Source: Escherichia coli
GTDB lineage: Bacteria; Pseudomonadota; Gammaproteobacteria; Enterobacterales; Enterobacteriaceae
DNA length: 64,000 nucleotides
Assembly (NCBI RefSeq): GCF_051903065.1
Contig: NZ_CP178438.1
Strand: one strand, 5' to 3'
The notes under the pieces: generated by a model
Databases searched by the model: none
What the model saw: the letters and a program-made list of their open reading frames with translations, nothing else
Told to the model about the DNA's origin: nothing
Translations under genes and position numbers: made by a program
Shown here: positions 2,797 to 21,912 of the stretch, piece after piece
Layout of the letters: every line of letters starts with the position of its first letter
Position numbering within the stretch: the first letter of the stretch is position 1

Positions 2797-3321
2797 TCAG
2801 TTTTCCTCTTTTTTCATCTCAATCGCACTGGCGCGGATGTGCACCAGCAGGCGATAGTGGTGGCCGATACTTTCTACCGGCTCAATTTGTTTCCATTCTG
2901 TGGACTGGTCGTCTGAAAAATAGGCAATGACGCCGATATAACCGGTTTTCTCATCCAGCTTGATCGGCGGCAGTGTTTTTACGGTATCCGGCAACAGGTT
3001 GAAGTCCTGGTGATCGATATAGTTTTTCCCTAGCACGTCGGGCAGCGCGGTGGTGGCAACCTGGTCGTAGTCGGCGGCCTGGAATTTGGAGTCGTCGCTC
3101 AGATAAATCAGCTGGACATCCACCGGCGCGGCTTCGCCGTCCGCCGTCAGGTTGCTGTCCGGCTCGGTCAGCAGCGTGACGGTTAGCTCGGTTGACTGAT
3201 CCATCAGCTTTCCGACCTGAATATCCGGATTGCGGATCACCTGGCTGATTTTTTTCGCTGTTTCACAGCCAGTTAATACGACGCTCATCAGAACGCAGGC
3301 CAGAAACGCTTTGCCGTTCAT
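2797..3321 (-). CDS. tssJ: T6SS outer-membrane lipoprotein TssJ
   Basis: 174 aa; signal peptide with lipobox LTGC; 1-bp spacing to tssK. Confidence 0.85.
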   Translation of the reverse strand: MNGKAFLACVLMSVVLTGCETAKKISQVIRNPDIQVGKLMDQSTELTVTLLTEPDSNLTADGEAAPVDVQLIYLSDDSKFQAADYDQVATTALPDVLGKNYIDHQDFNLLPDTVKTLPPIKLDEKTGYIGVIAYFSDDQSTEWKQIEPVESIGHHYRLLVHIRASAIEMKKEEN

Positions 3322-4610
3322 GCTTCCGGCTCCCGCTGTTTTTCTCGCAGCACCCGGTCATAGACCTGGGCATAAACTTCATTGAACAGCATTTCAAATC
3401 CTTGCTGTCGGCTGGAGGCCAGCTCATCGTAATAGTTGCTGTACATCTGCCATGCCCAGGCGTCGTCCATTTTCTGGCGCAGTTCATGGCTGCGGCGGTA
3501 TTGCGCAAAGCGGCGCATCAGGTTGCCCGGCGAGAAGGCCTCCAGCATGACACGCAACGCTTCCACAATCGCCGCCCGGTTAGCCTCTTCATGATGCCGG
3601 ATGTTGCGCAGGCTTTCGCCGATGGCCGCGGGTGCTGCGAGATGTACCGGACTTTTACCCTCAGCGAACATGACGTTCAGCGCAGTGGCGTAGTCCATAT
3701 CAAGGCGAAGCGGGTTGTCTTCCAGTGGACGCAGGTGTTTATCCGACAGGCTGTTCTGTTGTTGTTGCAGGCTCAGCAATCCCTTAATGGCAGCCTGCAA
3801 CGCCCGTCCGGCCTCTTCGAGAAACTCATCCGCATCCTGAGAATCGTGCAGCGTCAGCGGGCACTCCATACCGCGCAGCAGCGGGGTCACGGCCAGGTGG
3901 TACTGCGCCATGGCAGAAAATTCATCGTCGTCCTCATAACGGGCATTGCCGGGCGGCAGATCCATAAACGGCGTATTGATCCCGTTTGCACCTGTCAGTT
4001 CGGAGGCGAGGGCGACGGGCCGGGAAACGCGTGGTGCGATCGGATCATCTGCCACCATCAGGCTTTCCGTCTGGAGTGCCTGGAGCGGATCGCTGGAAAA
4101 ACCGTGCGCCACCGTGGGGGCAAGCTGATGCTGGAACGGCATTCCCGGATAGGACGGTTGTCCCTCGGTGGTCAGCAGGGTGTCCGCCAGACTGTCGCGG
4201 TTCATCACAATCGTTTCCGGGGTTGCCATCCGCTCGTCGTAGGTGACAGCCGCGCCGTCATGCAGAAACGCTTTCAACGCCAGTGCACCGAGCTGGATCT
4301 CATCCCCTTGGCGCAGGCGGATGAGCGCACCGGAAGAAACCGGGGCCAGATTAATCATCAGTCCCGGCGTCAGGCACCGCAGGCAATAGGCTCCGTCGTG
4401 CCGGATAACGGTACAGGCACGCGCAGCAATGCTTCCCGCCCGATCCTGTACCTGCCAGTGACATTCCGGCGTATGACCAATATCACCGCCGTTTTCGCTG
4501 AACAGGCATTTTGCGGCGCGTCCGCTTTCCAGTTCGTTGCCATTCATCACCTGTAAAGTCAGTGAGGCCTGGCGGGATTGCTGTTTTTCCTCAGCCATAA
4601 GTGGTTCCAT
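3318..4610 (-). CDS. tagH: T6SS-associated FHA-domain protein (TagH-like)
   Basis: Start moved to the internal ATG at 4610 (MEPLMAEEKQQ...), which follows the tssG stop; FHA-like N-domain (GHTPECHW...IRHDGAYCLRCLTPGLMINL). Confidence 0.75.
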   Translation of the reverse strand: MEPLMAEEKQQSRQASLTLQVMNGNELESGRAAKCLFSENGGDIGHTPECHWQVQDRAGSIAARACTVIRHDGAYCLRCLTPGLMINLAPVSSGALIRLRQGDEIQLGALALKAFLHDGAAVTYDERMATPETIVMNRDSLADTLLTTEGQPSYPGMPFQHQLAPTVAHGFSSDPLQALQTESLMVADDPIAPRVSRPVALASELTGANGINTPFMDLPPGNARYEDDDEFSAMAQYHLAVTPLLRGMECPLTLHDSQDADEFLEEAGRALQAAIKGLLSLQQQQNSLSDKHLRPLEDNPLRLDMDYATALNVMFAEGKSPVHLAAPAAIGESLRNIRHHEEANRAAIVEALRVMLEAFSPGNLMRRFAQYRRSHELRQKMDDAWAWQMYSNYYDELASSRQQGFEMLFNEVYAQVYDRVLREKQREPEA

Positions 4611-12423: not shown

Positions 12424-14823
12424 ATGTCCTTAAAAGGTCTGCGCTTTACGCTGGAGATTGACGGCCAGGAGCCGGACACCTTTGCAGTGGTGAATTTCAG
12501 GTTAATCCAGAACCAGTCTTATCCGTTTGTGATGAGTGTGGATGTTGCCAGCGACTCTTTTATGCAGACGGCGGAGATGCTGCTGGAGAAGAAGGCGACG
12601 CTGGCCATCTGGCAGGGCGCGGTGGCGCAGCGTTATGTCACCGGCGTGGTGGCGGGTTTTGGTATGCAGGAGAACAATGGCTGGCAGATGCGTTATCACC
12701 TGCGTATTGAGCCGCCGTTATGGCGGTGCGGGCTGCGGCAGAACTTCCGTATCTTCCAGCAGCAGGATATCCGGACGATATCGGCCACGTTACTGAACGA
12801 GAACGGCGTCACGGAGTGGACGCCGCTGTTTTATGAGGACCATCCGGCGCGGGAGTTCTGTGTGCAGTACGGGGAGTCGGACCTGGCGTTTCTGGCGCGG
12901 CTGTGGGCGGAGGAGGGAATTTTCTTCTTTGAGCGGTTTGCGGCGGACAGTCCGGAGCAGAAGCTGACGCTGTGCGACGATGTGGCGGGGCTGTCACAGG
13001 CGGGAGAGCTTCCGTTTAACCCGGACACATCGGCAGGAGCGGAGACAGAGTGTGTCAGTATGTTCCGTTATGAGGCGTATGTCCGCCCGTCGTCGGTGCA
13101 GAGCCAGGATTACACGTTTAAGGTGCCGGACTGGCCGGGGATGTATGAGCAGCAGGGTGAGAACCTGAACGGACAGCTGGCGCAGTATGAGATATTTGAT
13201 TATCCGGGAAGGTTCAAGGATGAACAGCACGGTAAGGATTTCACGCTGTACCAGATGGAGAGCCTGCGCAGTGATGCGGAAAAGGCCACAGGGCAGAGTA
13301 ATTCACCGAAGCTGTGGCCGGGAACGCGGTTTACGCTGACGGGGCATCCGCAGAAGATGCTGAACCGTGAATGGCAGGTGGTACAGAGCATTCTGTCAGG
13401 GGACCAGCCGCAGGCGCTGCACGGCAGCCAGGGGAGAGGAACCACGCTGGGAAATCAGTTAGAGGTGATACCGGCGGACCGGACGTGGCGTCCACGGCTG
13501 CAAAGCAAACCGAAGGTGGACGGGCCGCAGAGTGCCATTGTGACCGGGCCGAAGGGTGAGGAGATATTCTGCGACGAACATGGCCGGGTACGGGTGAAGT
13601 TCCACTGGGACCGTTATCACGGGATGACGGAGGCGAGTTCATGCTGGGTGCGGGTATCACAGGCGTGGGCGGGGCCGGGGTTTGGTAACCTGGCGATACC
13701 GCGGGTGGGTCAGGAGGTGATTGTTGACTTCCTGAACGGAGACCCGGACCAGCCGCTGGTCATGGGCCGGACGTACCATGAGGACAACCGTTCGCCGGGG
13801 AGCCTGCCGGGGACGAAGACGCAGATGACGATACGGTCGAAGACCTATAAAGGAAGCGGATTTAACGAGTTGCGCTTTGAGGACGCCACCAGTAATGAGC
13901 AGGTGTATATCCATGCGCAGAAGAACATGGATACGGAGGTGCTCAACGACCGGACAACGGATGTGAAACATGACCATACGGAAACCATCGGTAACGACCA
14001 GAAGATAACGGTGGTGAAGGGTCAGACGGTTCAGGTCGGTACAAAAAAAGAGGGGGGCCACGACCAGAGTATCACGGTGGCGAATGACCGGTGCATCACG
14101 GTACGTAATGACCAGACGCTGCAGGTGACGAATGACCGGACGGTGAGCGTGAGTCACGATGACGGTCTGTACGTAAAAAATGACCGAAAGGTGACGGTGA
14201 AAGGGAAGCAGGAGCATAAGACGACGGGTAACCACATCAGCCTGGTGGAGGGGAAGCACAGCCTGGAGGTGAAGGGGGACCTGGCGGAGAAGGTGAGTGG
14301 CGCGCTGGGGATAAAAGTGGACGGGGATATCGTGCTGGAGAGCAGCAGCCGGATAAGCCTGAAGGTGGGTGGCTCGTTTATCGTCATTCAGCCGGGCGGA
14401 GTGGATATTGCCGGGCCGAAGATAAACCTGAACGGTGGGGGCAGTGCGGGGACACCGGTGGGGACGATGCAGCCGGCGGTGCTGGAGGCTCCGGAGGATG
14501 AGAGCAGTGATGATGGCAGTGATGACTCCGGAGAGGATAGTGGCAATCCCGCAGGGAGTGACGGAGGAGGTGATGGCGGTGACGATGAAGATGATCCTGA
14601 AAAATATACCCTCCAGTTCCATTTTACGGACGATGACGGGATACCGTATTCAGAGACGCAGTATATTGCCTTTTTTGAGGATGGCACACAGACGCGTGGT
14701 GAAACAGACAGAGAGGGATATACAGAAATATTTTATACAGATACAGCACAGGAAATTAAAGTCCAATTGTTATTTTCGGATGCTTTTTATATTGAGCCGG
14801 AGGGGCATTATGGCAGGGAATAA
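12424..14823 (+). CDS. vgrG: T6SS spike protein VgrG with acidic linker and C-terminal extension domain
   Basis: 799 aa; gp27/gp5-like body, repetitive beta-helix (VKNDRKVTV...), acidic Asp/Glu/Ser-rich linker, then a ~65-aa C-terminal domain. Confidence 0.9.
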   Translation: MSLKGLRFTLEIDGQEPDTFAVVNFRLIQNQSYPFVMSVDVASDSFMQTAEMLLEKKATLAIWQGAVAQRYVTGVVAGFGMQENNGWQMRYHLRIEPPLWRCGLRQNFRIFQQQDIRTISATLLNENGVTEWTPLFYEDHPAREFCVQYGESDLAFLARLWAEEGIFFFERFAADSPEQKLTLCDDVAGLSQAGELPFNPDTSAGAETECVSMFRYEAYVRPSSVQSQDYTFKVPDWPGMYEQQGENLNGQLAQYEIFDYPGRFKDEQHGKDFTLYQMESLRSDAEKATGQSNSPKLWPGTRFTLTGHPQKMLNREWQVVQSILSGDQPQALHGSQGRGTTLGNQLEVIPADRTWRPRLQSKPKVDGPQSAIVTGPKGEEIFCDEHGRVRVKFHWDRYHGMTEASSCWVRVSQAWAGPGFGNLAIPRVGQEVIVDFLNGDPDQPLVMGRTYHEDNRSPGSLPGTKTQMTIRSKTYKGSGFNELRFEDATSNEQVYIHAQKNMDTEVLNDRTTDVKHDHTETIGNDQKITVVKGQTVQVGTKKEGGHDQSITVANDRCITVRNDQTLQVTNDRTVSVSHDDGLYVKNDRKVTVKGKQEHKTTGNHISLVEGKHSLEVKGDLAEKVSGALGIKVDGDIVLESSSRISLKVGGSFIVIQPGGVDIAGPKINLNGGGSAGTPVGTMQPAVLEAPEDESSDDGSDDSGEDSGNPAGSDGGGDGGDDEDDPEKYTLQFHFTDDDGIPYSETQYIAFFEDGTQTRGETDREGYTEIFYTDTAQEIKVQLLFSDAFYIEPEGHYGRE

Positions 14824-15613
14824 TAATACTAGTGGGACTTCACAACCCGAGTCGCAAGTATGTGTAGTACCGCAAAAAATTACAAATAAATTTAAAATAA
14901 TGATGAGTAAGGCTTGTAAAGCACAGAAAATGGTTTTATTGAAAAGAGCAGATGATATTATGTCATGGGAGGGGGAACAACAACGAGATTTTATTAAAGT
15001 TTTTGGCCTTAAAGGCGAGGACATTATAAAAATCAGAAAAGTTGGGGAAGATACTGGGAAACGAATGCAAGCGAGACTATTCATAATGGATGGCATCAGA
15101 CGAATAATGACGATTGCAAATGGTTTGACGATCGAAAGCTATAAAGATTATACGAACTGCAATGAATTTGCTGCTTTTATTAGTCCACATCTTGATCCTC
15201 CTTACATTGTAAATATCGGAGCGCATTTTGAATACAGACATGGTATAAAACAGTCGGTTACAGGTAGAGACTCTCATGTAAGTACACTTTGCCATGAAAT
15301 GTCCCATATATTTTGGTATTGGGGTGACAATCAAAAAGGTGGTATGTGGACTCAGGATTATACGGGTATTAATAAGTTCGCAACAAGTAATAAGGATGAA
15401 GTTAGCTATGAGAAACATGTTTCAGTGGCTAATGATCTGGTTACATTGCGTAAAGATCAGTTATTTGAGAATGCATATAATGTTGAAAGATATTTTTATA
15501 TAAAATTAAATGATGAAGATATTGAAGCTCAAGATGAGAATATGTTAGCAAAAAAAGTAGAGGATAAAATAAAAGAGATAGAAAAATGTTTTGATGAGTT
15601 GACGGGGAAATAA
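14810..15613 (+). CDS. Putative T6SS cargo effector, HExxH zinc-metallopeptidase-like
   Basis: ATG at 14810 overlaps the vgrG stop; AT-rich; HEMSH motif encoded at 15293-15307. The track's longer 14435 start lies inside vgrG and is rejected. Confidence 0.55.
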   Translation: MAGNNNTSGTSQPESQVCVVPQKITNKFKIMMSKACKAQKMVLLKRADDIMSWEGEQQRDFIKVFGLKGEDIIKIRKVGEDTGKRMQARLFIMDGIRRIMTIANGLTIESYKDYTNCNEFAAFISPHLDPPYIVNIGAHFEYRHGIKQSVTGRDSHVSTLCHEMSHIFWYWGDNQKGGMWTQDYTGINKFATSNKDEVSYEKHVSVANDLVTLRKDQLFENAYNVERYFYIKLNDEDIEAQDENMLAKKVEDKIKEIEKCFDELTGK

Positions 15614-15614
15614 G

Positions 15615-16364
15615 ATGAAGAGGTTGGCTTTCTATAATCTAAATTATGTTGTACTGATGGTTTTTTTTCTTTGTTTTTTGCCATTATCTATTGCAATTGC
15701 AATAGATAATGAGAATCTTTTTGTAAAAAAATACAGATTCGGTTTTGAACGAAGAAGTGACAATGGGAAACCAATTATTTATCTTAGCCATAATTTAGCG
15801 CCAGAGGAAAATATAAGTAATGAATTAACAAATGATGTTGTTGTTAAATTGGTGGTTAAGCCACATGCTGAAAATATTTTAGCTACTATAACTTTTTATA
15901 ACAGTAGTACTAAATCGTATTTTCTCCCCAGAATATATTATCCAAAGAACTTCCAAAAAGGAAATGGAGATGTATTTGATGCTTTGTGTGATGACGAATT
16001 CTTGATTACATCAGGAAATATTAGCTTAGACTATCTAGGAGGCTTTTGTCCCTTTGAGCTTGATTTGAATTTGAGCCGATGGGTGGAAATTACGGCAGGT
16101 AAAAAAATATCTTTTGATGTAAAATTGAATGATATGCATTCATTTCTCCCCAGTTTAAATAATTATCATATAAAAACATTAAACTACAAACTTGTTAGGA
16201 GAAAATGGTTTGTATTAAAATCAATTAATGAAACATTCCTCTCTATTTTGATGAAAAGATACTCATGTAATGAATATGATTTTAGAGCTATATCATTTAG
16301 TGGAGAGGGATGTGATAATTATGAATTTGATAAAAATACGTTTTTTTTGTTAATCAAATATTAG
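15615..16364 (+). CDS. Signal-peptide protein, candidate cognate immunity protein
   Basis: Start 1 nt after the effector stop; N-terminal hydrophobic signal (VVLMVFFLCFLPLSIAIA); AT-rich. Confidence 0.5.
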   Translation: MKRLAFYNLNYVVLMVFFLCFLPLSIAIAIDNENLFVKKYRFGFERRSDNGKPIIYLSHNLAPEENISNELTNDVVVKLVVKPHAENILATITFYNSSTKSYFLPRIYYPKNFQKGNGDVFDALCDDEFLITSGNISLDYLGGFCPFELDLNLSRWVEITAGKKISFDVKLNDMHSFLPSLNNYHIKTLNYKLVRRKWFVLKSINETFLSILMKRYSCNEYDFRAISFSGEGCDNYEFDKNTFFLLIKY

Positions 16365-16600
16365 ATAAAGATGATGAGCAACATTCTGTTCATATTAGGT
16401 CTAATGAATTTTCCATCAATATCGATGGAAGCTTGGTAAAGCAACCTTATTGATTAAAATGTATCGCAGGTTTTATTTTCTGTAATGCTGGTGCATGTGC
16501 GTAAATATTTCTTAAGAGCCGGAAACACCTCTTCCGCCTTTATCGACGATAAACCTACCGCCAGAACCGGTGATGCCATTGACTGCGGTGGCGTGGTTAA

Positions 16601-16941
16601 AGGTGGAGGGCGATGTGGTGCTGGAGAGCAGCAGCCGGATAAGCCTGAAGGTGGGCGGTTCGTTTGTGGTCATCCATTCAGGGGGCGTGGACATCGTCGG
16701 GCCGAAAATCAATCTCAATAGCGGCGGTAGTCCGGGAACGCCGGTGCCGACGCTGCAACCGGCGGTTCTGAAAGCGCTGGCAGATGATAAAAGTTTAGCG
16801 GCTGAGCAAAATGATAGTAATGCATCGTCCGATCAGAATGATAACAACGATGAGGGTGAGGAAGCGCCAGAAAAATCGGTGTGTAAGGAGTGCCTGAAAA
16901 GGGCGCAGGAAGCCGCCGCCGCTTTTGCGCCTCGTGGATAA
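16601..16941 (+). pseudogene. Orphan vgrG 3' remnant with a different C-terminal tail
   Basis: Nucleotide and protein similarity to vgrG 14310-14470 (VLESSSRISLKVGGSF.V.IQ/HSGGVDI.GPKINLN.GGS.GTPV), then a divergent acidic tail; no vgrG N-terminal body upstream. Confidence 0.7.
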
Positions 16942-16947
16942 GGGAGA

Positions 16948-17718
16948 ATGACGATGATAACAGTATCGCCACGCGCTACCGATCAAGACAAATATATTAT
17001 CTGGCTGAAGCAGGCTGAATCATTCTGTTCTGCCGCTGGTTTGGATTACATAGATGTGCTTGTTGACCAGGCTGGAACCGACCAACCTTTGCAAAATGAG
17101 ATACTTCATCTGTGGCCAGCCATTCACTGGTATGCCCTGTTTGAAGGAACGCCTGAAGCTGAGACGATGGAGTATTCCCCTGTAGTGTTACGCCTGTACT
17201 TTGCGCTCAGTAGCCATCGCAAATTTCTGGCACAACTGATGGCGTCATTTGCTGATACGCCGCGTCTTACTTTGTTGATATCCCCTCTTACATTCGACCT
17301 GCTGGGGCGGCATCTTCAGGTATTGTCACAGGTTCAGTGGGAAGAACAGACCGGATTGCTGCGTTACTATGATAATCGGGTGTTCCCTTTACTGTTCACA
17401 CATGTTTTGACTAACGAGCAGCAGGCGACATTTACTGATATTGCGTTGTTCTGGAGCTGGTTAGACCGTGATGGTGAGATTAACTGGAAATCAGGAAGTT
17501 TTTCACCAGAACGCAGGCTTACTGACAACCCGGAGATGAATCGGGTGGATGATGTACAGGTGGGATTGATGGGCTGTATCTGCGACGCTGAAGTCCTGAT
17601 GAAGGAGAAAGCAGTCAGTGAACTCAGTCAGGAAAGCTATTTTGCCCACTGTCTTGATATTGCTTTCAGAGCCAATGACGCGAAATATTTCGGAGCTTTG
17701 CGGGACTTCGAAGGATAA
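16948..17718 (+). CDS. Putative T6SS effector adaptor (DUF4123-like), low confidence on family
   Basis: 256-aa ORF between the vgrG remnant and the immunity/effector pair; position and size fit adaptor/chaperone genes. Start may be the third codon (16954). Confidence 0.45.
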   Translation: MTMITVSPRATDQDKYIIWLKQAESFCSAAGLDYIDVLVDQAGTDQPLQNEILHLWPAIHWYALFEGTPEAETMEYSPVVLRLYFALSSHRKFLAQLMASFADTPRLTLLISPLTFDLLGRHLQVLSQVQWEEQTGLLRYYDNRVFPLLFTHVLTNEQQATFTDIALFWSWLDRDGEINWKSGSFSPERRLTDNPEMNRVDDVQVGLMGCICDAEVLMKEKAVSELSQESYFAHCLDIAFRANDAKYFGALRDFEG

Positions 17719-18061
17719 TATTGTGGTGATGTACGGGGAGATTTATCTGTTTAAAAGTCCGTAGCTGTTAATATCAAGAGATAATCGTGAAATAAACGGA
17801 AAATCAAGCTCGACATGTAATGGTAGTATCCATCATGTTGCATTTGTGTTCGATCGTAATGTCAGTTCACTTGGCTGCAATATATTTTGCGTAATATCAT
17901 CAATGCTCTGTCGATATTCCAATGTGTGACAATCGAAAGATATGCATTTTATTTGCTTCTTTGTCAAAACTTTATTGTCGTAGAAACAATACCCATCAAT
18001 TAAAATCTCTCAAAGTAAAAGAACCAGCAACATGTCCAGCAAAATAAGGAAAAGTATCAGT

Positions 18062-18586
18062 ATGAGAGCGATTTTCAAATGTTATTCTCTAATGATTTTA
18101 TTTGCAGTATCAGGCTGTTCAATGGCAAAAAATAGCGGTGATTACACTGCTGTGGATATTAATGGGATAAATCATACGGATAAGGATATAAATTATATAC
18201 ACATCAATGGTTACGGCGGACCAAATATTGGTCCATTCGGAGACGGTGGAGGATATTGTTGCGTTATGCTGCCAGATAAGTGGCATTCTGGATTAAAAGC
18301 CCAGGTTGAATGGGAAATTACCCCAAATACAGTACCTCCGCCACCACTCTATAAGGATTGGGATAAATATCAGGCCTGGGAGAAAAAACTAAAAGAAAGT
18401 TACATTCAACATACCGCAATTGTTGATATCCCGGAATACGATGCTGAGCTTTGTGGCCTGACCGTTCATTTTCTAACGTGTAATCAGATTAAAGTGACAA
18501 CCGTCTGCCAGAAGTATGGCACACCGAATTATCCCATCAAAGAACCCCGCGAGATGAAGGAACCAGCAACATGTCCAGCGAAATAA
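18062..18586 (+). CDS. Lipoprotein, Tli-like candidate immunity for the adjacent lipase
   Basis: MRAIFKCYSLMILFAVSGC lipoprotein signal; AAGGA ~12 nt upstream. The track start at 18032 lies inside a duplicated 3'-end repeat and is rejected. Confidence 0.6.
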   Translation: MRAIFKCYSLMILFAVSGCSMAKNSGDYTAVDINGINHTDKDINYIHINGYGGPNIGPFGDGGGYCCVMLPDKWHSGLKAQVEWEITPNTVPPPPLYKDWDKYQAWEKKLKESYIQHTAIVDIPEYDAELCGLTVHFLTCNQIKVTTVCQKYGTPNYPIKEPREMKEPATCPAK

Positions 18587-18602
18587 GTGGTCTGGCTTTT
18601 CC

Positions 18603-20663
18603 GTGTTATGCCCCCCAGCGTTTCCTGAAAATGGGCGATTAATATTATCTGAAGCGCAGGTAAACGCGAACTACCTAAAACAAATCAATAAAACAGAAGA
18701 GCACAAAACCAACTGTAGTAAACAGGCTGGATTTAGAATTGGCTTTACGTGTAATCAAAGTCTGCATATTAGTCTGTTTTTTGATGGTACAAATAATAAT
18801 GAATATAATGACACTCCTGGACACCCAATCAATATTGCCAAACTGTTTCATACGACCTATCAGAACGCAGAAGAACAGGGATATTTTAACTACTATATAC
18901 CGGGTGTAGGCACACCATTTCCCAAGATAGGTGAAATGGATTACAGCAACAGCGGGCTGGAGTTCGCTACTGGTGGTGAAGATCGAATTAATTGGGCATT
19001 ATTACGCCTCGTGGATGCCCTGAGCTATTCCATTGACCCTTCCCATAAGCGACTGGATGATAATGTGGCAAAAGAGCACATTCCTCTTATGCGCGCTCCC
19101 TGGCCTATGACTGGTGAAGTGAATCGTCGCAATGTGATTAACCCCTACCTGGAAAAATTACAGGGACTGTTAGAGCAAGCCAGTCCGCGCCTGCTAAACG
19201 TAAAGCTGTTTATCTACGGATTTTCCCGTGGCGCAGCGGAAGCACGAACTTTTGTTAACTGGTTGACTCAGTTAGCTTGCCCGCAGGAGCAACAGGTGAT
19301 GCTGGCCGGGTTAGCTGTCAGTATTGAGTTTTTGGGGCTGCTGGATACCGTAGCTTCTGTGGGGGCGGCGCATGTTTTACCGGGCGCTGCCGGTCATATG
19401 GGATGGGCCGATAGTACTCAGCAACTCCCTGATGAGAGGCAGTTTCCCGGCCTGATTAAATGCTGCCGCCACTTCGTTGCCGCGCATGAGCAGCGGCTGT
19501 GCTTTCCGCTGGATTCAATCCGTCGTCCAGACGGAAATTATCCTTTAAATGCAGAGGAAATTATCTATCCGGGGATGCACTCTGATGTCGGTGGTGGCTA
19601 TCCCGTTCGCGATCAGGGGAAGTCCTGTGGTGACTCAGGCGAAATTCTTTCTCAGATAGCACTGCATGATATGTATCTTGCTGCATTTGATTCAGGAGCA
19701 CCACTTGCTGTTTATTCTAAATTTGTTACTCCATTAATAAAAGGTGTGTCGCCTCTGCGAATTATGAGTCCTTCTAGCGTAAAGGAATTTACGATTGCTA
19801 ATTCATTAACAAAACGCTTCAACATCTGGCGACAAACGCTGCTGAACACCACCTTGCAGGGTACAGAAGAAATGATTGATACGAGGGAAGGTTATCACTC
19901 CTATCAACTTGCCCAGGTTCTTGAAAGCGCAATTAGCGATCAGATCGGCTGGATCACCGCCTGGCGTATCGGTCGCTATGCGAATAACAGCCTTCTTGTG
20001 CAACCTTTTTATATTAAGGCGCCACAGCTGGATAAAGATGGACTTGATAAAGAGGCTAAAGCGCGTAAAGAACAAATGGAAAATATTGAAAAAGAGCGGG
20101 CGAACAAGCAGAAAGGGAATGGCACACTTGATGAAAGTAATCAGGGCATTCCTATCCTTGACCCAACCAATGCTCAGTATCAGTTGCGAGAGGCAGCCCG
20201 AGAATTTCAGAGCGATTATAAAGGATGGACGCGCGATATTAACGGCAGCGTCATGGAGAAAGCCATTCAGATTCTTGTGGATGTCATTCCTAAATATCCG
20301 GTGTATCTGATTAATGGCGATGATGAAGCAAAAGAATATCAGCAAATTAAGGCTATGGGAGACGGACTCTATCCACAATTTTTTATTGATTCACTGGGAA
20401 CGGGAACGCGTACTCAGCCCTGCGCTGAATTACTGGCTCTCTATGATGACCAGGTTCACGACTCCCGCGCCTGGTTTATGCAAAGTTCGCTGGGTGGACG
20501 CGAACCCTGGGGCGGTTATTTTCGCTACCGCATGATTTACTTCGGTGATGAGGCTAATAAAGAGCTGAAGCTAATCTCTGCAGATGGCAAAGTTGTTGGT
20601 GATCAGCCCACATCCAACCGGGTCATTTATTGGATGGAATCGAAAACGGTGAGCCGAGGTTAA
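18603..20663 (+). CDS. tle1: T6SS phospholipase effector, Tle1-like (DUF2235, GxSxG)
   Basis: 686 aa; LFFDGTNNN N-terminal core motif and GFSRGA (GxSxG) at 19217-19234. Start codon uncertain: GTG 18603, no in-frame ATG upstream. Confidence 0.7.
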   Translation: MLCPPAFPENGRLILSEAQVNANYLKQINKTEEHKTNCSKQAGFRIGFTCNQSLHISLFFDGTNNNEYNDTPGHPINIAKLFHTTYQNAEEQGYFNYYIPGVGTPFPKIGEMDYSNSGLEFATGGEDRINWALLRLVDALSYSIDPSHKRLDDNVAKEHIPLMRAPWPMTGEVNRRNVINPYLEKLQGLLEQASPRLLNVKLFIYGFSRGAAEARTFVNWLTQLACPQEQQVMLAGLAVSIEFLGLLDTVASVGAAHVLPGAAGHMGWADSTQQLPDERQFPGLIKCCRHFVAAHEQRLCFPLDSIRRPDGNYPLNAEEIIYPGMHSDVGGGYPVRDQGKSCGDSGEILSQIALHDMYLAAFDSGAPLAVYSKFVTPLIKGVSPLRIMSPSSVKEFTIANSLTKRFNIWRQTLLNTTLQGTEEMIDTREGYHSYQLAQVLESAISDQIGWITAWRIGRYANNSLLVQPFYIKAPQLDKDGLDKEAKARKEQMENIEKERANKQKGNGTLDESNQGIPILDPTNAQYQLREAAREFQSDYKGWTRDINGSVMEKAIQILVDVIPKYPVYLINGDDEAKEYQQIKAMGDGLYPQFFIDSLGTGTRTQPCAELLALYDDQVHDSRAWFMQSSLGGREPWGGYFRYRMIYFGDEANKELKLISADGKVVGDQPTSNRVIYWMESKTVSRG

Positions 20664-20762: not shown

Positions 20763-20920
20763 CACACTGTACTCCCAGGGAAAAATCACGTAATGCTGCT
20801 TTTTTTGTACTAAATAATTCGCATTTTATGTTCAATAATTGAGGTGTTCCTTATTACCTAAAGCTGTTTTTCATTGCTTATACATGATCAAATACTCATT
20901 GCATAATTAAGGGGGGCAAA

Positions 20921-21684
20921 ATGGAACTTAAAAAATTGATGGAACATATTTCTATTATCCCCGATTACAGGCAAGCCTGGAAAGTGGAACATAAATTGCC
21001 AGATATTCTATCTGTTAACTATTTGCGCCGTTATTTCTGGTGCATAATGCTGGGAAGATATAGAGGATTTGGGGAAACACATCCCGATTTTTTGAAGTGA
21101 TATGGTGATTTTGAAAATGGTATTCCTGTTCACGATATCATTGCCAGAGTTGTATCCTGTATCAGTCCTGAAAAATTTCATGAGTGCTTTATTAACTGGA
21201 TGCGTGACTGTCATTCTTCAGATGATAAAGACGTCATTACAATTGATGGAAAAACGCTCCGGCACTCTTATGATAAAAGTCGTCACAAGGGAGCAATTTA
21301 TGTCATTAAAATCCGTCTTCATATTGTTTGCATGTCTCTGATGAATTTATTGATTTTACGTTTGAATGGAAAGGGCTGAAGAAATTATGCATGGCAGCCT
21401 CATTTCGCTCAATAATAGCAGAACAAAAGAAAAATCCCGAAATGACGGTCAGATATTATAGCATTTCTGCTGATTTAACCGCAGAGAAGTTCGCCACAGC
21501 GAACCGAAATCACTGGCAAGTGGAGAATAAATTGCACTGGCATCTGGACGTGGTAATGAATAAAGACGACTTCAAAATAAGAAGAGGAAATGCAGCAGAA
21601 TTATTTTCAGGGATACCGAAGATCGCTATTAATATTTTAACGAAAGATAAGATAATCAAGGCAGGGGCAAGATGTAAGATGTGA
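20921..21684 (+). pseudogene. ISAs1-family (H-repeat-associated) transposase pseudogene with internal deletion and stops
   Basis: [26 protein letters not shown]... N-terminus, in-frame stop, and C-terminal part (...[11 protein letters not shown]...[11 protein letters not shown]...) in three broken frames. Confidence 0.75.
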
Positions 21685-21912
21685 AAAGCAGCTGCGGACA
21701 GAGACTACCTCGCGTCAGTCCTTGCGGGGGCGGGCTTTCGTAATCTTGTTCTGCAAGGGATGATAAAAAGTGCAACTTTATTCCACGCAGCTATTTAGAC
21801 AGCGTACAGTAAACAAACGAAAGTTGTTATTTCAATGGTCAGGGCAAGAGCATGAAGTGTTTACTACACACTATGCTCTTGTCCTGGAGTCAGGTCTTGT
21901 TTGGAGGGATAA

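Follow-up and report, generated by a model that had tools for sequence, protein, structure and literature searches.

The 64-kb stretch of Escherichia coli DNA analysed here (the window) carries a lipoprotein gene, tli1a, bracketed by two direct repeats that match its own 3′ end, and the question raised by this locus is what these repeats are and how they came to stand there. The gene (18062-18586, + strand, with an alternative in-frame start ATG at 18032) encodes an outer-membrane-type lipoprotein of the DUF3304 family whose product is predicted from its family and neighbours to give immunity to the Tle1 phospholipase, a type VI secretion system (T6SS) effector, and the genes stand in the order vgrG′-tla1-tli1a-tle1. 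The evidence makes it highly probable that the two repeats are the unit boundaries of a tli1a array, that the copy number of this array varies by recombination and that the window represents the one-unit state.

The upstream copy of the repeat, here called tail0 (18018-18048, + strand, AAAGAACCAGCAACATGTCCAGCAAAATAAG), and the downstream copy, tail1 (18557-18587, + strand, AAGGAACCAGCAACATGTCCAGCGAAATAAG), were delimited by repeat search as 31 nt long and identical in 29 of 31 positions, with a start-to-start distance of 539 nt and the lipoprotein open reading frame (ORF) between them. The longest exact word in common is the 20-mer GAACCAGCAACATGTCCAGC at 18021 and 18560, and the bracketing repeat with its identical 20-bp core is thus present as given in a preliminary description of this DNA. 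The extent of about 58 bp proposed there (17991-18049 and 18532-18590) was rejected, the real length being 31 nt. Beyond these 31 nt gapped alignment gave just the 8-mer CCCATCAA and scattered matches across a 2-nt gap, and shuffled upstream flanks reached the observed score in 364 (26 nt) and 609 (40 nt) of 5,000 cases for the window and in 1692 of 5,000 for the L001-type flank (7-12% and 34%, respectively), so that the remainder is not above chance. The 27-nt core has two sites only in the entire window when up to 3 mismatches are allowed, and none was found in 100 dinucleotide shuffles.

The repeat is the overlap of the tli1a end with the tle1 start, and tail0 is the same sequence. In the tli1a frame tail1 holds the last nine codons and the stop of the gene (KEPATCPAK*, stop TAA 18584-18586), and in the other frame it reads AAGGA (18557-18561), a 9-nt spacer and ATG 18571 followed by TCC AGC GAA ATA. 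The first five codons of tle1 are therefore situated in tail1, out of frame with the tli1a end, and the downstream repeat carries the translation start of tle1, a point absent from the preliminary description. This ATG is the annotated tle1 start in loci L001, L003, L013, L014 and L015, where the overlap on tli1a is 16 nt, and the Tle1 N-terminus read from it, MSSKISGLAFPCYAPPVFPEDGRL, matches Tle1 of Rahnella (MSKISLALPVWAPPLFPEQGRLP) and of Enterobacter. Tail0 likewise reads ..KEPATCPAK* in one frame (stop TAA 18045-18047), and in the other a weak ribosome-binding site, AAAGA, followed by ATG 18032 and the codons MSSKI. The array unit is defined as the 539 nt from the first base past the tail0 stop to the tli1a stop (18048-18586, + strand), and it is gained or lost as a block.

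Relatives of the locus were sought in 5,426 complete E. coli genomes, and the tla1-tli1a-tle1 locus was present in 69, once per genome; 14 E. coli loci were read in detail (L001 etc. are locus labels) and the copy-number tally rests on 60 listed genomes among the 69. The number of units between the common left flank and the common tle1 is 0, 1, 2 or 3. Three units were found in 51 of the 60 listed genomes, in the order A-B-C of unit types with A frameshifted, and also in L006 (B-B-B/C). Two units are present in L003 (B-C) and L010 (A followed by a B/C hybrid), and one unit either as in the window (5 records) or as a type-C unit (L007, L008 and L015). L016 (NZ_AP027877, strain 2018-05-2CC, 3201-3540) has no unit at all, tla1 being followed by a 314-nt spacer, one tail and a frameshifted tle1. 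The multi-copy arrays that the preliminary description had suggested looking for in other strains thus exist, as 2-3 tli1a copies standing in tandem at this very locus and repeating every 527-542 nt (527, 537-539 or 542 nt, each unit ending in the same tail); the window itself has one unit and the extra 31-nt tail rather than two head-to-tail units. In all 14 E. coli loci N units were accompanied by N+1 tails, with tail0 always standing about 300 nt past tla1 and 5′ of the first unit. The proposal that the locus is the footprint of an array reduced by recombination holds to the extent that whole units vary among strains, but the upstream copy is no by-product of such a reduction here, as tail0 precedes the first unit in all alleles examined, the 3-unit and 0-unit alleles included; it is therefore a constant left edge and not a scar made in this strain.

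Between conserved flanks the alleles are set apart by whole numbers of units. L016 aligns with the window at 99.5% identity except for a single gap of 539 nt (18042-18580 of the window), which takes out tli1a and is the product expected from recombination between the two repeats. L015 and L016 are 99.8% identical with one 527-nt gap and one poly-C base, and L001 and L010 are 99.9% identical except for a 527-nt gap located in the conserved 3′ block; the second unit that survives in L010 (L010_u2) is a B/C hybrid. Single gaps of unit size also separate L003 from L015 or L007 (96.9-97.5% identical; 539 nt, exactly from tail0 to tail1) and L001 from L003 (96.3% identical; 538 nt, corresponding to the A unit). 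Since the tle1 5′ haplotype of L016 matches those of L015 and L007, L016 more probably arose from a C-only allele than from the window type, the structure of the product being the same.

The unit types A, B and C are 59-88% identical in protein, and B and C about 68% in DNA. Hybrid units were found in three loci. L010_u2 combines a type-B 5′ end and middle with a type-C 3′ end, and the third unit of L006 (L006_u3) a type-B 5′ end with a type-C middle. In the window unit, sliding identity gave 95-100% to the type-B unit L003_u1 in columns 1-230, 93-98% to the type-A unit L001_u1 in columns 271-390, where identity to B is 60-72%, and again 92-98% to B from column 391 onward. The window unit is accordingly read as a B/A/B mosaic from gene conversion or recombination, with a type-A patch at about 18290-18430 (+ strand). 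The type-A middle is otherwise seen in the frameshifted first copy of the 3-unit arrays, and the window gene is therefore an intact gene with a middle known elsewhere from a pseudogene only. In multi-copy arrays of three genera the tle1-proximal unit has an 'AYAKHAANYQ' middle (L001, L003 and L006 in E. coli; L011 5480-6037 in Rahnella; L012 6158-6691 in Enterobacter) and the upstream units have a '..KYEAWEK..' middle. The type-C middle is 53-54% identical to the Rahnella and Enterobacter tle1-proximal units, as compared to 33-56% to types A and B. The sole unit of the window has the 'AWEK' middle, and both the window and L010 are without the tle1-proximal type though tle1 is present.

Each tail ends one tli1a unit and would at the same time start the following gene, be it the next tli1a unit or tle1. 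As tail0 precedes the first unit, every unit is flanked by direct repeats, and a crossover between 31-nt tails, or between the conserved 3′ ends of about 150 nt of adjoining units, would remove or add whole units; the tails are the likely crossover sites. Because the tail carries a ribosome-binding site and an ATG, the next gene would stay translatable in each product. In the window, recombination between tail0 and tail1 would remove the immunity gene, and L016 is a natural allele of this form. Unequal crossing-over that depends on RecA is established in E. coli, as is slippage between close direct repeats without RecA, and the minimal homology for RecA recombination is about 25-30 bp; judging from natural alleles, either RecA-dependent unequal crossing-over or RecA-independent replication slippage may have acted here. 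In this island lineage the path was probably from A-B-C to B-C, the state of L003 (which has 99.5% identity to the window in tla1 and spacer), then to a single unit and finally to none.

Several points weigh against an array that changes by recombination between its own units. Horizontal transfer, with crossovers located in tla1 and in tle1, could also have exchanged alleles as entire cassettes, and for this island lineage one unit could in principle be the ancestral number. One unequal crossover cannot make the B/A/B unit of the window, for which at least one extra gene-conversion event is needed. The arrays of other genera (Rahnella L011, Enterobacter L012 and the metagenomic loci L045, L029 and L049) have as many tails as units and lack tail0, and the match of the spacer upstream of tail0 to a decayed unit is marginal, its score being reached by 49-94 of 1,000 shuffles.

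How the array was built is a separate question, and sequential displacement, as opposed to tandem duplication in situ, has somewhat less than an even chance of being right. According to this explanation incoming tli1a-tle1 modules recombine into the 5′ end of the resident tle1, and each such event would leave behind the old immunity gene together with a tle1-start stub, which is the tail. The tle1 start inside every tail is in line with this, each tail holding the tle1 ribosome-binding site, ATG and five codons, so that effector vestiges do stand between the immunity genes, and the inter-unit spacers of Rahnella and Enterobacter carry stubs of 45-60 nt of the tle1 5′ end. In Rahnella (L011 5480-5540 and 6025-6085) the second tli1 opens with a 16-codon copy of the tle1 N-terminus (MSKISLALPAWAPPLF), and in Enterobacter the inter-unit spacers of about 60 nt (L012, after 3753, 4334, 4916 and 5519) start with a degenerate copy of the tle1 start, MSTINIVPEF.. 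as compared to MSVINFAPIS.. in tle1. An effector-gene stub in the units is thus not confined to E. coli. The protein identity of just 59-88% between types A, B and C and the 'AYAKHAANYQ' tle1-proximal middle common to three genera also favour displacement, as they make the unit types old paralogues and not recent duplicates, and the same idea was proposed for the Aux5 cluster (PMC6691524) and the immunity arrays (PMC5361080) of Vibrio cholerae. On the other hand displacement leaves tail0 unexplained, and the two type-B units of L006, with 92% DNA identity, look like a local duplication. As displacement concerns the building of the array, it is compatible with tail-mediated loss of units as the source of the present state of the window.

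For tail0 itself, a feature of the E. coli lineage, the possibility that it is the last 30-50 nt or so of an older, fourth tli1a unit, the rest of which has decayed into the spacer or been deleted from it, was judged slightly less probable than displacement is for the array. The spacer (17719-18017, + strand) is an AT-rich stretch of about 300 nt from tla1 to tail0, locus-specific and unannotated in all relatives, which occurs once per genome in the same 69 of 5,426 genomes and never under an annotated feature. A tandem duplication alone yields N tails and not N+1. Against the 27-nt motif tail0 of the 3-unit lineage shows 5 mismatches and the other tails 0-2, so that this tail0 is probably old, and homology detected by nhmmer in that lineage stretches to 47-49 nt. 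Read in the tail0 frame the spacer gives SVDIPMCDNRKIC.., to be compared with the family motif ivDiPeydaekCgl, and the in-frame match to Tli1a, SVDIPMCDNRK, is marginal: with the tail removed a protein profile run on three-frame translations gives 1.1-1.8 bits, a score that 5-9% of the shuffles reached. Nor is the DNA similarity of the flank significant, and an nhmmer search of the spacer with the unit profile matched the tail and nothing else. No relative with an intact gene at the spacer position was found among E. coli genomes, species representatives and metagenomes. The scan of species-representative genomes for an intact gene replacing the spacer returned Rahnella and Enterobacter only, and a metagenome scan with a degenerate tail pattern returned 10 stretches with tli arrays (L024 and L025 share a contig), and neither tail0 nor a spacer like that of E. 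coli was seen in any of them.

Two other origins of the spacer were tried and discarded. A regulatory or RNA element was ruled out by the lack of an Rfam match at E≤1, the lack of a terminator and a number of promoter-like sites not above chance (5 as compared to 3.7±1.6 in shuffles). In the metagenomic loci L045 (6879-7664) and L029 (1750-2208, with tli on the + strand) a different small lipoprotein ORF with the lipobox ..GCGT stands between tla1 and the first tli; no resemblance of this ORF to Tli1a or the E. coli spacer could be detected, and a spacer derived from it by decay was rejected since tblastn gave noise, partly on the wrong strand. In L005 (about 4340-4465), and also in L009, an insertion of about 125 nt (..GAATCCCCAGGAGCGTGCATAAGTACGTGACTGGGGTGAGTGAACG..) is located right after the tla1 stop; by its looks it may be an ERIC/IRU (enterobacterial repetitive intergenic consensus/intergenic repeat unit) enterobacterial repetitive element.

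It is possible, though unlikely, that tail0 is instead the genuine 5′ end of tli1a, providing its ribosome-binding site, ATG 18032 and a 10-codon N-terminal extension. The likeness of tail0 to the tle1 start would then be that of one selected translation-initiation cassette common to the genes of the operon, a supposition that was given the same modest weight. The start at 18032 had been called false in the preliminary description. That the ORF track starts inside the repeat was confirmed, the track having chosen 18032 because tail0 holds a copy of the tle1-start ATG, but its falsity is doubtful, as this copy is in frame and used in NCBI annotation. In each of the three unit types the lipoprotein frame takes in the tail ATG (MSSKIRKSISMRAIF.., MPVEIKNGIGVRAIF.. 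and MSSKIRNGMNITKVV..), and NCBI annotation begins many tli1a units there. Type-A first units have an internal GTG lacking a good ribosome-binding site, and tail0 in these keeps AAGGA. Against tail0 as a 5′ end, the similarity spans the KEPATCPAK codons 5′ of the ATG, which translation initiation does not need, and the Rahnella first unit begins directly after tla1 with no such extension. The window tail0 site is degraded to AAAGA, whereas ATG 18062 is preceded by AAGGA at 11 nt, and the genome identical to the window is annotated from 18062. A translation start in tail0 and an array bounded by tails are compatible and not exclusive. For annotation it matters that tle1 has its start codon inside the repeat and that the tli1a and tle1 start calls are inconsistent among genomes.

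A general regulatory or repetitive element upstream of unrelated genes, of the repetitive extragenic palindromic (REP) or ERIC type or an operator, is very improbable, and nothing was found in its favour. A 38-nt tail query gave matches confined to the 69 locus-bearing genomes and always in DUF3304 or Tle1 features, the window holds just the two sites that the shuffles lacked, and there was no match to an Rfam family. As the tail motif occurs nowhere else in E. coli genomes it is no general regulatory element, and this alternative, which the preliminary description had named as fatal to its own reading, is refuted within complete E. coli genomes. Least probable of all, negligibly so and with nothing in their favour, are a chance similarity, in view of the 20-nt exact match and the 29/31 identity, and an assembly in which a longer array had collapsed, discarded since three complete genomes have the same structure and are 100% identical to the window locus over 1.8 kb and because unit types B and C are just about 68% identical in DNA.

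The assignment of tli1a rests on NCBIfam NF053804 (Tli1a_fam, 211.3 bits against a cutoff of 110) and Pfam PF11745 (DUF3304, E=3.4e-28, residues 36-145), and the gene is annotated as tli1a in the genome identical to the window. A signal peptide and a lipobox cysteine (AVSGC) are read directly from the sequence (MRAIFKCYSLMILFAVSGCS), and a Tle1-family (DUF2235) effector, a DUF4123 adaptor and vgrG adjoin.

The tle1 gene (18571-20663, + strand) encodes the type VI secretion phospholipase effector, with the Pfam T6SS_Tle1-like catalytic and C-terminal domains found on the intact L014 allele. At its 5′ end a poly-C tract (18611-18616, + strand) is C6 in the window and C7 in most relatives. C6 was found in the window/L002, L007 and L016, and C7 in L001, L003-L006, L008-L010 and L013-L015. 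Because of C6 the tle1 body in the window is not in the frame of ATG 18571, and the open frame restarts at GTG 18603 with no obvious ribosome-binding site. In L013 and L014, which have the allele of the window, and in most relatives the tract is C7, the tail ATG is in frame and Tle1 is intact with 697 aa; a change of one base in the tract thus decides if tle1 is called intact. C6 also occurs on a different 5′ haplotype (L007 and L016) and is thus either a recurrent change by slippage, possibly serving phase variation or toxin inactivation, or a homopolymer sequencing error. The frameshift that makes tle1 a pseudogene in L016 agrees with the notion that a strain can do without immunity only if its toxin is inactive.

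It is rather improbable that the overlap of the tli1a stop and the tle1 start is a selected boundary of a portable cassette, and no passive relic, and that together with the slippery C6/C7 tract it makes the locus a contingency locus. If it were, recombination over short homologies could take out, bring in or exchange any unit and still leave tle1 translation unbroken, since every unit ends in the translation start of the following gene and tail0 offers the same sequence at the left edge, and the immunity repertoire and toxin production would switch at high frequency within a clone.

The tle1 of the window is 99.4% identical to that of L015, which has a type-C unit only, and 98.3% to that of L001 (A-B-C); co-variation of tle1 allele and immunity type was considered and dropped, the tle1 identities giving no simple pairing. 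The gene is also mosaic between strains. At about 18740-19190 of the window (positions 151-600 after the tail) identity is 78-91% to L007, L003 and L006, and at about 19640-19790 (positions 1051-1200 after the tail) it is 63% to L003, most other blocks being 94-100% identical.

The surroundings are those of an E. coli T6SS effector island. From translation and annotation, a complete vgrG (12424-14823) is followed by an M35-peptidase-like gene and a hypothetical gene (14837-16364), and this group (12424-16364) directly precedes a C-terminal fragment of vgrG (16570-16941, + strand), which adjoins the 5′ side of tla1 and is annotated as "VgrG, incomplete, missing N-terminus". The fragment is the truncated spike gene of the Tle1 module. 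A full-length vgrG stands immediately 5′ of tla1 in L001 and L004; in the window the vgrG of the Tle1 module seems to have received an inserted effector module or to have recombined with one. The tla1 gene (16948-17718, + strand) is annotated as the DUF4123 adaptor/chaperone for Tle1 and reached 220 bits with NCBIfam NF053803 (Tla1) against a cutoff of 200. An ISAs1 remnant 3′ of tle1 is annotated in the genome identical to the window; it corresponds to a degenerate transposase of the ISAs1 family (H-repeat-associated) at 20900-21700 of the window and almost all relatives have it too. In the identical genome the island is bordered by IS903-like and IS1 remnants.

In E. coli, according to Lovett and colleagues, tandem repeats reportedly change in copy number when short direct repeats cross over unequally or misalign by slippage. 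The present locus is alike in having 31-nt direct repeats 539 nt apart and unit-precise insertions and deletions, the mechanism being in this case deduced from natural alleles.

The closest known relative in gene order is the vgrG4a-tla1-tli1b-tli1a-tle1 island of Pseudomonas aeruginosa (PA3294-PA3290), in which Tli1a is an outer-membrane lipoprotein that binds Tle1 (PMC13133936, J Biol Chem 2026), and the NCBIfam models that name Tla1 and Tli1a in the window derive from this island. Gene order and families are the same, with a DUF4123 Tla1 and DUF3304 lipoproteins 5′ of tle1, and there is likewise more than one tli1 paralogue, one of them a probable pseudogene (PMC13133936). Strain PAO1 has however two fixed paralogues, whereas E. 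coli has 0-3 units between strains, and a copy-number series, a shared overlap junction and an extra upstream tail are not described for P. aeruginosa (PMC13133936). In V. cholerae Aux5 two DUF3304 genes lie 5′ of tleV with a vestigial effector fragment between them (PMC6691524, Genome Biol 2019), which the authors read as effector exchange leaving the old immunity gene behind (PMC6691524). The E. coli locus is similar in having immunity genes 5′ of a Tle1-family lipase and an effector stub between the immunity copies. It differs in that the stub is cut to a 16-nt overlap (ATG and five codons), identical from unit to unit and so doubling as recombination homology, and in that an orphan tail comes first.

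Orphan immunity arrays formed by sequential effector displacement were described in V. cholerae by Kirchberger et al. (Sci Rep 2017, PMC5361080), and these too are strain-variable arrays beside a T6SS effector, mosaic from frequent homologous recombination. They are however located 3′ of the effector and consist of unrelated immunity families, for which illegitimate recombination was thought to be needed (PMC5361080). In the E. coli locus all units belong to a single paralogous family and share their 3′ end, which makes ordinary homologous recombination sufficient.

Multiple DUF3304 genes 5′ of tle1, effector stubs between them and strain-variable immunity arrays are thus already described, and in the literature no description was found of the E. 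coli series of 0-3 units, of the N+1 tail rule or of the tli1a-stop/tle1-start overlap as a junction. The repertoire of immunity genes decides which neighbours a bacterium survives beside. The locus is a well-resolved example of known gene gain and loss by recombination and no new kind of system, and it offers a clean natural series of 0-3 units between identical flanks, including hybrids and a strain with immunity lost and the toxin inactivated, in which short conserved gene ends let immunity genes shuffle by ordinary recombination.

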